Assembly: GCA_964106645.2 (NCBI GenBank) | Contig: OZ067046.1 | From: Podarcis pityusensis | Taxonomy: Eukaryota | DNA length: 64,000 nt | Direction: 5' to 3' (one strand) | Shown here: piece after piece, positions 47,301 through 50,300 of the stretch | Numbering within the stretch: position 1 is the stretch's first letter | Layout of the letters: each line of letters opens with the position of its first letter | The notes under the pieces: generated by a model | What the model was told of the DNA's origin: nothing | The model's database searches: none | The model's input: only the letters and a program-made list of their open reading frames with translations | Translations under genes and position numbers: made by a program

Positions 47301-50300
47301 ATGACAAAAAAATGACATACATACTGGAAGTAGATAAGATACTATTTCATGACTGTGCTAAGAGATTTTTATTAAAAACCTGCATACTTTGCAACAGAAT
47401 AAGGACCAACAGACTATATTACCCTTACTTACTTCCCTTCTCATTATCTGGGACCAAACGTTCAAAGGCACCTGAGCAAGGCTTCTTCCAATCAGGTGTT
47501 GCTCAAGTAAAGGTGGGAACTGGAGAGGTCCCTAAAACCCACGTTGCACTAATTCACAACTACAGCCTCACTGCAAATGCCGAAGTAGCAGTCATCAGCA
47601 TTCTTGCCATGACGGTTGCTTCTTGACTGGATCACACCAAAGCCATCCTATAAACAACCCAGTCCTCTGCATTCAATTTAGCTGTATTGCTGTAAGAGCC
47701 AATTCCTGGCAAACAAAGCAGAGCCAGCCGTTTCTCATCTGATCGCTAGAAAACCAGCTTCAATAAGATATCCCACAAGGGACTGGGGTCAGTGTTCCCA
47801 TGGCCCTTTGTGGGGTATCTCATGGAAGCTGGTTTTCTAACAATCAGAATTGGATGACCGCCTTGCAAGCCAGCAACTGGGGTGGTCTATTAATAGGATG
47901 GCTTTGGTGTGATCCAGTCAAGAAGCAACCGTCATGGCAAGAATGCTGATGACTGCTACTTCGGCATTTGCAGTGAGGCTGTAGTTGTGAATTAGTGCAA
48001 CATGGGTTTTAGGGACCTCTCCAGTTCCCACCTTTACTTGAGCAACACCTGATTGGAAGAAGCCTTGCTCAGGTGCCTTTGAACGTTTGGTCCCAGACAA
48101 TGAGAAGGGAAGTAAGTAAGTAAGGGTAATTAATATTATTAATAGAGGTGTGCATCTCTGAAAATGAAGAAATGTTATAGTTCTTGTCACCTGATTATCA
48201 AGAGAAGATTAATACCAGTCAAGTTAATTGGTTCATACTGTGATAGTTGGTAGGTATTTAAAAATGCGGAAGAGCTCCATTTTTATAAAATTGTCACTGC
48301 AATTCATTATTTTGAAATATAGTACAGTACATACCACTGCATTTTTTGTTTTTTGCCTAATTGGCTTTAGTCTATGAGCATTCAGAGGTGATACAACACT
48401 TTGCAGTGCAGGTTTCGGATGTCCATATTGTCGCTCTTTGCCCCCATTTCTTCTGCTTTCAGACGCTAGAGGGAGACCAAATGCAGGTGCTGGCAGAGCC
48501 TTCTCAGCAGTGTATTTCCTTGTGTCCAGTGGCCCTACAGCTGGTGCTGTTGGTTGTGCAGATTCAGGGGGTCTTCTGCATTTTAAGCCATTCCATGCAT
48601 TTTTCAGTGTTTCTTGAGGCACACCAAGATGGAATCGAAAATCTCCACTTGTGTTCTTAATACTACTGTCATATAAAGGTTCCTGCATCTGAGCTGAAGC
48701 AGCAAAGGGATATTTTAATGATTTAGAAAATGCATTACAGGATTCTTCCTAGTTTTTACAGGAGAAAAATGTTACGTCTCTAACTATAAATGAGGATAGG
48801 AAAGCATCACATCATTTTTGTCTACTCACAAACTGACAATGTTTACACCCTGGGAAAGTTACTGTTGTATGTATGAAAAGCTAAATATTGTGGCACATAA
48901 CCAACTTTTCTGAATTGTTTGTAACCGATGTTAATAGCAACAACTTCCTTTACTATTTACTAGAAAACTGGTTTAAGCTTGCTTAAATTTAACTACTGAA
49001 AGAGATTAAACAGCATGTTATGCGTTCTTCCCATGCAAACAGATGGACTGGGAGTGGTTAAATAAAGCATTTGGGATGGCATCAAAAAGCAGCACCACGT
49101 CTGTCCTGGTAAAGTGCATGAAATACCATATGCACCTTCTAAGTACAGAAGCAATTAAAAGCAAAAATTAAGAAGAAAATTGCTTGAGGATTCAAATAAT
49201 CCCAACTGTGTGTCCTATGGTGACAATTCCCCAAGGCATTCCTGGTAATTCAAAACAAAAGAAAATGTCTGAGAAGATTTAAGTAATCCTTGGCTAAATT
49301 ACAGCTACATTCAGTGCTCTTTCACTAAATGAAGTAATTTGATGCAGGAGAACAAAAGCTCCTCCTTCCCTTATGGCCCTGTTCTTCTTTCTACCCTCCC
49401 TTCTGCCGCAATGTTTATATAATAAGCAGTTGCTGTTTTCATCCTTGATCTCTCTACACAGATAATTTATTATCAGTTATTAGCGCTAGACAGATGTTCT
49501 CTACCTACACACAGGATCAAGATCGTGCCAGTTCACAGAGCCCAATACATGCAGATCTTCACAATTGTTATCCTTCCAGTTTGAGGGGTAAGAATTCTAT
49601 ACTGAGCCTTAACATAGGTATCCATGTTCCCATCTTAACATAACTTTCAACGTGTGGCTATCCAGTAGCCCCAGAAAATGCAGTGTCATGATCCATCCCT
49701 AAATGTGCAAATATAGATAATCTTTGCATTTTGCCTTCTTAGTAAGGACAGATAACTTTAGACAGCTTACCAAAATAAACTTTTGAATAGACTACTGGAA
49801 TATGTGTTTCTTAAATAAATATTCCTTCACAACATAGTTAGGAGCTTCTTCTGTTGTTAGTCAAGTTAAGAGCTAACTTTAGTTGTAGCAATTGGAGGTG
49901 ACAAGAGGGGAAAGGGCTCTTAGACAGCATAACCCAAACCATGATTTATGACTTGTTGGACACAATTAACCCTCTACACTAAGATATCTACCTTTCATAG
50001 AATTACTACACAGGTTACAGCTGAGGTCCATCTGCACAATTTTTCATCTATGCACATAAAGGTGGAATATCTGAATTCAAACATATGCCAAACAGTGCAC
50101 TCGTCTGGAAACTTGGATTGTATCTTTATGAAAACGTGATGGCAAACATGGGCTTGGCATTACATAATATACAGTGGGGCTCGGGAAAAGGTGGTATGAC
50201 TTGGGAGTTCTGCAGCATTATCCATCACCACAGCATGTTCCTTCAAGTGGTACTTATGTATGAAGAGGGACTGAGAAAAGTACAGGGGGAATCCAAGGCA

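Follow-up and report, generated by a model that had tools for sequence, protein, structure and literature searches.

Short-range template switches leave a reverse-complement copy of a nearby template. In the account of Walker et al. 2021 (PMC7954356), such events have a median length of 12 nt and a maximum of 128 nt, with a search range of 100 nt either side, and in the type ordered 3-2-4-1 the return point lies before the exit, which gives an inverted plus a direct repeat seen as one insertion. The locus described here, in an intron of PLK4, resembles these events both in the nature of the copy and in the order of its switch points, but the copied stretch is about 232 nt long, its template lies about 245 nt off and thus outside the 100-nt range, and the host is a lizard and not an ape. 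A second related class is the MMBIR-type insertions in tumours, for which PMC8421209 gives an average junction microhomology of 3.7 nt. Our locus shares with the templated insertions of that report the inverted local template, an entry microhomology of about 4 nt plus one mismatch, and germline persistence; it differs in a return without clean microhomology, in a 9-nt duplication, and in being seen across species and not within human genomes.

Template switches have also been connected with hairpins in introns. As in the intronic hairpins and miRNAs described as born by template switching in PMC10710096, a perfect stem made in one event sits in a host intron and is co-transcribed; the present stem has 234 bp, compared with the 30-55 bp screened there, and at this length the RNA would more probably serve as a substrate for ADAR. 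Species-specific long inverted repeats in introns (Wang and Leung 2009, cited via PMC5414712; PMC5398296) are likewise lineage-restricted, and their function is mostly unshown in the accounts given by these two sources. Unlike what those accounts describe, the pre-duplication allele and both junctions are visible here.

MITEs and non-autonomous Tc1-mariner elements have terminal inverted repeats, TA at both ends and an inner hairpin. The fold-back in PLK4 has all three of these features, yet neither dispersed copies nor a flank-to-flank empty site were seen in the contigs compared, and its arms are of different age.

We report that the right arm of this fold-back is probably a lineage-restricted inverted copy of intron sequence, generated by one template switch during replication or repair, with the RNA hairpin as a likely neutral by-product. 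The locus thereby offers a clean, dated case of a long intronic inverted repeat arising without a transposon, in which one can see the template, the allele that preceded the duplication and the two junctions. We regard it as a further, likely neutral, instance of a known mutation class, the local template switch, larger than the published short-range cases; in size, the right arm is intermediate between the short template switches on record and large structural variants. The presence of arm and armless alleles in a close relative makes testable the rate of conversion between inverted arms and the effect of a new 234-bp duplex on host splicing and editing. A literature search on PLK4, lizards and intronic inverted repeats, with a coverage that ends at subscription journals, found no published report of this locus.

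Sequences compared

The window is the whole stretch of DNA analysed, 64,000 nt from Podarcis pityusensis, and all coordinates refer to it. Public contigs were taken from 4 of the 24 runs listed (6 coded organisms): X2 from A, the same species as the window; X3 from B, a closer relative; and X10 and X19 from D, a more distant relative. Run contigs were compared with 46860-47882, which covers the left flank, one arm and the spacer, and the right flank was seen only as loose ends. The match threshold was 80% likeness, at which copies well under about 90% alike could escape; a short diverged piece was clipped in D, so that old copies could be missed.

A nested fold-back in PLK4 intron 7

PLK4 lies on the minus strand, as identified by Pfam kinase and polo-box matches and by PDB PLK4. 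Its reading frames put eight exons down to 46837, an exon count that we take from human exon landmarks, with exon 6 recognised by human sequence; the exon 5 frame had no exact match in the protein collection searched. The fold-back (47418-48130) is in intron 7 (48334-46838, 1497 nt) and starts 204 nt past the exon 7 donor, in agreement with a first-pass annotation, made from the letters of the window, that had placed it about 200 nt after exon 7. The features are collected in Table 1.

Table 1. Features of the PLK4 fold-back and its surroundings (window coordinates)
Feature	Coordinates	Strand	Remarks
PLK4 exon 8	46733..46837	-	downstream of the fold-back in transcription
Left outer arm	47418..47651	+	in A, B and D contigs together with the left flank
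Unpaired spacer	47652..47737		between left arm and inner stem
Inner hairpin	47738..47848		stem 47738-47781 / 47805-47848, 44 bp at 86%, 23 nt between
Direct repeat, copy 1	47888..47896	+	last 4 nt are the microhomology with the left arm inner end
Right arm	47897..48136	+	240-nt insertion
Direct repeat, copy 2	48137..48145	+
PLK4 exon 7	48335..48693	-	upstream of the fold-back in transcription; 5' boundary read from sequence

Base-by-base pairing bears out the size and place first proposed for this structure, a 713-bp nested fold-back with a duplex of about 234 bp. The outer arms pair in a single register over 228 bp (47424-47651 with 47893-48120) with 2 mismatches, at 47446/48098 and 47542/48002, which corresponds to the identity of about 99% already noted. 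The right arm then has one additional GTAA, forming a 4-nt bulge, and 6 further pairs reach out to 47418/48130, for a total of 234 bp; a repeat finder placed the outer arms at 47424-47661 and 47883-48120. As previously described, the left end reads TA followed by CCC and the right end GGG followed by TA, and the arms enclose a diverged inner hairpin, whose 23-nt interval folds down to a 9-nt loop. The PLK4-sense strand has an MFE of -591.5 kcal/mol, compared with -214.4 ± 7.8 kcal/mol for 20 shuffles. The first-pass annotation had further observed that both outer mismatches become G-U pairs on the sense strand. They do pair as U-G and G-U, but a bias towards such pairs is rejected: each transition within a stem yields a G-U pair on one of the two strands, which makes two out of two a 1-in-4 chance. 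The fold-back is the sole near-perfect long inverted repeat in the 64-kb window, whose inverted repeats otherwise comprise SINE pairs at 84-87% and one hairpin of 79 nt.

The left outer arm is the older, template copy, and on the minus strand it terminates outward in a short run, (GTAA)2-3. The right arm corresponds to 47416-47647 in reverse complement, with one GTAA and one TAAT unit added. Exact patterns from the left block (47418-47896) had 0 matches in metagenome contigs (two patterns) and viral contigs (one pattern), collections that hold little lizard DNA.

Several other candidate assignments were rejected. Older homology between the left arm and the right flank fails, since 536/1000 shuffles score equally well. 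Rfam gave 0 matches in the window at gathering score and 5 weak matches below it (best E = 0.14); this best one, mir-315 on the inner hairpin, was set aside as a generic stem at 24 bits against a cut-off of 63. The hammerhead motif expects GAAA after CTGATGA, and the arm's CTGATGA, read by eye, has no GAAA after it.

Junctions of the right arm

A 9-nt direct repeat, TATTAATAG, which was absent from the first-pass annotation, brackets the 240-nt right arm. Such a repeat occurs within 12 nt of both span ends in 104/20000 random position pairs and in 26/2179 AT-rich ones, giving a chance of 0.5-1.2% for a bracketing 9-nt repeat. The entry junction has a microhomology of 4 nt at 47648-47651, or 6/7 if one mismatch is allowed. 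At the return junction no clean microhomology is seen, the sequence being blurred by TAAT/TAT slippage; the TAAT units number two in A and three in B, a difference as slippage would give. At the outer end, the copy does not stop with the GTAA run but includes flanking sequence of the left arm as far as 47416, and the right-hand TA that resembles a target site is part of the copied stretch, TA being self-complementary.

An 8-nt direct repeat at 47782-47789 and 47876-47883 brackets the right half of the inner hairpin. It is possibly the scar of an older copy-back event, a hint that has to be read with its statistics: 326-661/20000 when conditioned on position, yet 105/300 shuffled spacers hold some 8-mer repeat.

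The right arm in other samples

In the same-species sample X2, the contig graph is a true two-copy fold-back. The depth of the collapsed arm is 52.2, compared with 22.4 (left) plus 27.6 (right) for the summed flanks, and a 301-nt spacer contig meets the arm contig at each end; 3 differences from the window are among those listed. Copy number had been proposed as a check on the fold-back, and the arm is at two copies in X2 with no dispersed near-identical copies at 80% likeness, at which the four runs have 4, 6, 7 and 2 matching contigs. The relative B (X3) has the same five-contig fold-back; depth was left unused for copy number there, as short contigs range from 7.7 to 12.5.

These contigs bear on the quality of the assembly, which had been named as a point that could overturn the fold-back. 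Near-perfect inverted repeats are a known long-read artefact, and the whole fold-back is spanned by no single contig, as a chimeric fold-back read might have it. However, both outer and both inner junctions are reproduced by contigs of another sample of the same species (X2) and of B (X3), and the differences between the two arms are at fixed positions. An assembly artefact is thus refuted by these contigs, and we consider its probability negligible.

X3 contains one more contig, record 19, which is without the right arm: at its loose end the spacer is joined directly to the right flank, with a single TATTAATAG between them. Record 16 (arm) and record 19 (armless) stop at the same point, 52 nt beyond the first base of the 9-mer, and are thus alleles of a single locus; B accordingly has an arm-bearing and an armless allele. 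In D only the left arm and the inner hairpin are found and the right arm is absent (X10 record 7, X19 records 8 and 9). X10 record 7 (2618 nt) matches once (47615-47848), with no inverted second piece, and inverted pieces as short as 30 nt were reported in X2 and X3; a D contig of 540 nt runs unbroken through most of the arm. The armless junction was thus read directly in B and deduced from the missing second piece in D. A flank-to-flank empty site was found in none of the A, B or D contigs compared.

D differs from the window at 22/504 nt and B at 11/576 nt; D is therefore the outgroup, which consists of one organism (two D runs). The inner hairpin is covered in D (X10 record 7, X19 record 9) and so predates the right arm. 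The simplest history is one gain of the right arm before the A-B split.

In the armless B allele, a deletion at 47833 has removed 10 nt of the inner stem. This deletion is absent from the D contig, so the allele cannot simply be equated with the D haplotype of these runs. Hybrid or introgressed ancestry is possible for the B animal. Two D contigs (X10 records 5 and 6, 47512-47644), which depart from the window at 4 and 8 positions and have depths of 4 and 11.3, are variants of the left arm that we read as D alleles.

Origin of the right arm

A template switch of the 3-2-4-1 order predicts three things that can be read at this locus. The insert matches, in reverse complement, ancestral sequence about 245 nt away; an ancestral state with the template and without the insert is read in one B allele and deduced in D; and a direct repeat, the 9-mer, is present as expected when point 4 precedes point 1. 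From this sequence pattern we infer the following polymerase event. Plus-strand synthesis would stall at 47896, about 50 nt past the older hairpin. Its 3' end would pair through 4 nt (6 of 7 if one mismatch is included) with 47648-47651, and the partner could be the opposite strand or the growing strand itself, folded back. About 232 nt would then be copied back to 47416, after which synthesis would rejoin the original template at 47888, 9 nt upstream of the exit, and re-copy TATTAATAG. The switch points of such an event are ordered 3-2-4-1, the arrangement termed 'inverted plus direct repeat'. The extra GTAA and TAAT units would have been added by later slippage, and two transitions, one at a CpG, would later have hit the right arm. 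The in-register DNA fold-back has pair probabilities of 0.03, 0.07, 0.08 and 0.36 from four start points and never occurs in the MFE structure; it is a minority state, so the intra-strand fold-back route is not established. An identical scar would be produced by snap-back synthesis repairing a staggered break (PMC5728401).

The first-pass annotation had instead considered a long-TIR non-autonomous transposon. Long inverted repeats are deletion-prone, and one could imagine an old two-armed element inserted at TA, its arms kept alike by conversion and its right arm deleted between the 9-nt repeats in D and in one B allele. The TA-flanked CCC and GGG ends and the nested hairpin agree with this, as does the GC content of the left block, 47% compared with 30-35% in the flanks, and the bases at 47531 and 47504 look common to both arms within a lineage. 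However, 152/1271 window tiles are equally GC-rich, and older homology between the two spacer halves is rejected because 205/1000 shuffles score equally well. The inner 9-mer would also have to fall by chance exactly at the start of high identity, and either two losses or one shared loss would be required. No family was found at 80% likeness: the few contigs, together with an arm depth in X2 that matches two flanks, indicate that there is no young MITE or retroposon family. Within the window, the best nhmmer match outside the fold-back has E = 6.1, a search that old diverged families could escape. Moreover, spacer and left arm are still present in the armless alleles, which means that the 713 bp were not acquired as a single unit. 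We therefore regard a transposon origin of the whole fold-back as unlikely. The left block by itself may be an old transposon relic, and it has no clear TSD.

Retrotransposition would account for the right arm in another way, as a LINE-mobilised RNA ending in a GTAA run and flanked by a 9-nt TSD, the RNA being either cis PLK4 intron RNA or that of a family member whose copy was later converted to the left arm. The insert is indeed PLK4-sense, with (GTAA)3 and an AT-rich tail at its end and the 9-nt duplication on both sides; GTAAGTAAG is unique within 64 kb; and RTE-type elements terminate in microsatellite tails in the description of PMC6007223. Against this, a landing 245 nt from its own template is unexpected, the copy extends beyond the GTAA run into the flank of the left arm, and the 5' junction fits template-switch microhomology. 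One D contig has one GTAA unit fewer, as in a slipping microsatellite. No family copies were seen at 80% likeness, and Pfam over the six read-through frames of 47418-47897 found no coding remnant (best E = 0.18). Such an insertion appears decidedly unlikely. The related proposal of the first-pass annotation, two retroposon 3' ends fused head to head, fares no better, as no family with a shared 3' end, no coding remnant and no tRNA-like head was found; ARAGORN reported 0 tRNA genes.

Identity of the arms

The likeness of the arms had earlier been attributed to homogenisation by conversion. This is not required, because 99% identity is within what youth alone gives: if the copy dates from the A-B split, the arms should differ at 2.4-4.4 positions even in the absence of conversion, and in the window they differ at 2. 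Conversion from arm to arm is nevertheless hinted at, though not shown, by two sites. At 47531 the window arms share one base and the B and D contigs another, which a one-off copy alone does not explain, and at 47504 the collapsed B contig has a private base. Sorting of old haplotypes is a possible alternative for 47531. B carries three arm copies, and its collapsed arm has no bubble across 228 nt, with a chance of 0.01-0.09; bubbles are kept elsewhere (X10 records 2/3 and 5/6). Logan contigs are described as collapsing variants into one path (bioRxiv 10.1101/2024.07.30.605881), and because the contigs are collapsed, the arms cannot be phased here. In yeast, template switches are reported to have homogenised inverted arms (PMC8604942).

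The predicted RNA hairpin

The pre-mRNA duplex proposed in the first-pass annotation is judged a fair prediction, with the arms pairing over 234 bp, and it would hold 119 adenosines. By analogy with inverted SINE pairs, the PLK4 duplex would probably be edited by ADAR and discarded with the intron. The only run guessed to be RNA among those compared was X19, from the armless D. Its private differences, among those listed, include 47762 A>G and 47781 G>C (plus strand); neither is a sense-strand A-to-G change, and D is without the duplex.

Read on the minus strand, the PLK4 sense, 48123-48080 of the new arm contributes three CTTAC units and an AG preceded by a pyrimidine run, and the old arm ends in GTAAGT near 47434. 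We take the CTTAC units to be branch-point-like and GTAAGT to be donor-like, both as unscored motifs, and in the predicted fold both would be buried within the duplex.

The best reading is likely that the hairpin is a neutral by-product. A function irrespective of origin, as an edited or diced RNA or as a splicing modulator tuning PLK4 dosage, could draw on a near-perfect 234-bp duplex within a transcribed intron, on the branch-point-like units and pyrimidine run that the new arm brings on the sense strand, and on the persistence of the right arm in two lineages; template switches made intronic miRNA hairpins in mammals, as reported in PMC10710096. Yet the armless allele coexists in B and D is without the arm, changes at 47749 and 47781 disrupt base pairs of the inner stem and none of the listed changes compensates for them, no Rfam match was obtained at gathering score, and no second locus was seen as a small-RNA target. 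These points leave a functional hairpin very improbable. A role in splicing or trans-silencing is unlikely in particular, because the two arms share an intron and the contigs compared showed no other near-identical locus. One may also picture a newborn hairpin in PLK4, a dosage-sensitive centriole gene, grown outward by two successive copy-backs, of which the 8-nt repeat may mark the older; in this picture it is a hairpin whose arms are already converting and whose duplex is edited or diced enough to alter PLK4 output. This we hold to be very doubtful; if true, the arm and armless alleles in one animal would constitute a natural control.

Other repeats in the window

Several further repeats are found in the window. 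A short element at 36369-36631, presumably a Tc1/mariner-type MITE, is bounded by TA on each side; its terminal inverted repeats are 29 nt long (96.6%) and enclose a 79-nt hairpin. In PLK4 intron 4, 53487-54590 (plus strand) is a Tc1-like transposase remnant (Pfam HTH_Tnp_Tc3_2, E = 5e-19), with a truncated catalytic region and a left boundary read by eye. A pair of dispersed repeats, 8358-8514 and 17156-17313, is 81% alike over 158 nt. Sauria/Squam1-type SINE copies at 50911-51261, 21728-22079 and 17982-18130 are 84-87% alike, and the first of them, in PLK4 intron 5, is inverted relative to the second. SINEs near PLK4 mark the host as a squamate, and their head is lacertid-like: they have ACCTTT tails, which match the Squam1/Sauria tail as given in PMC10058329.
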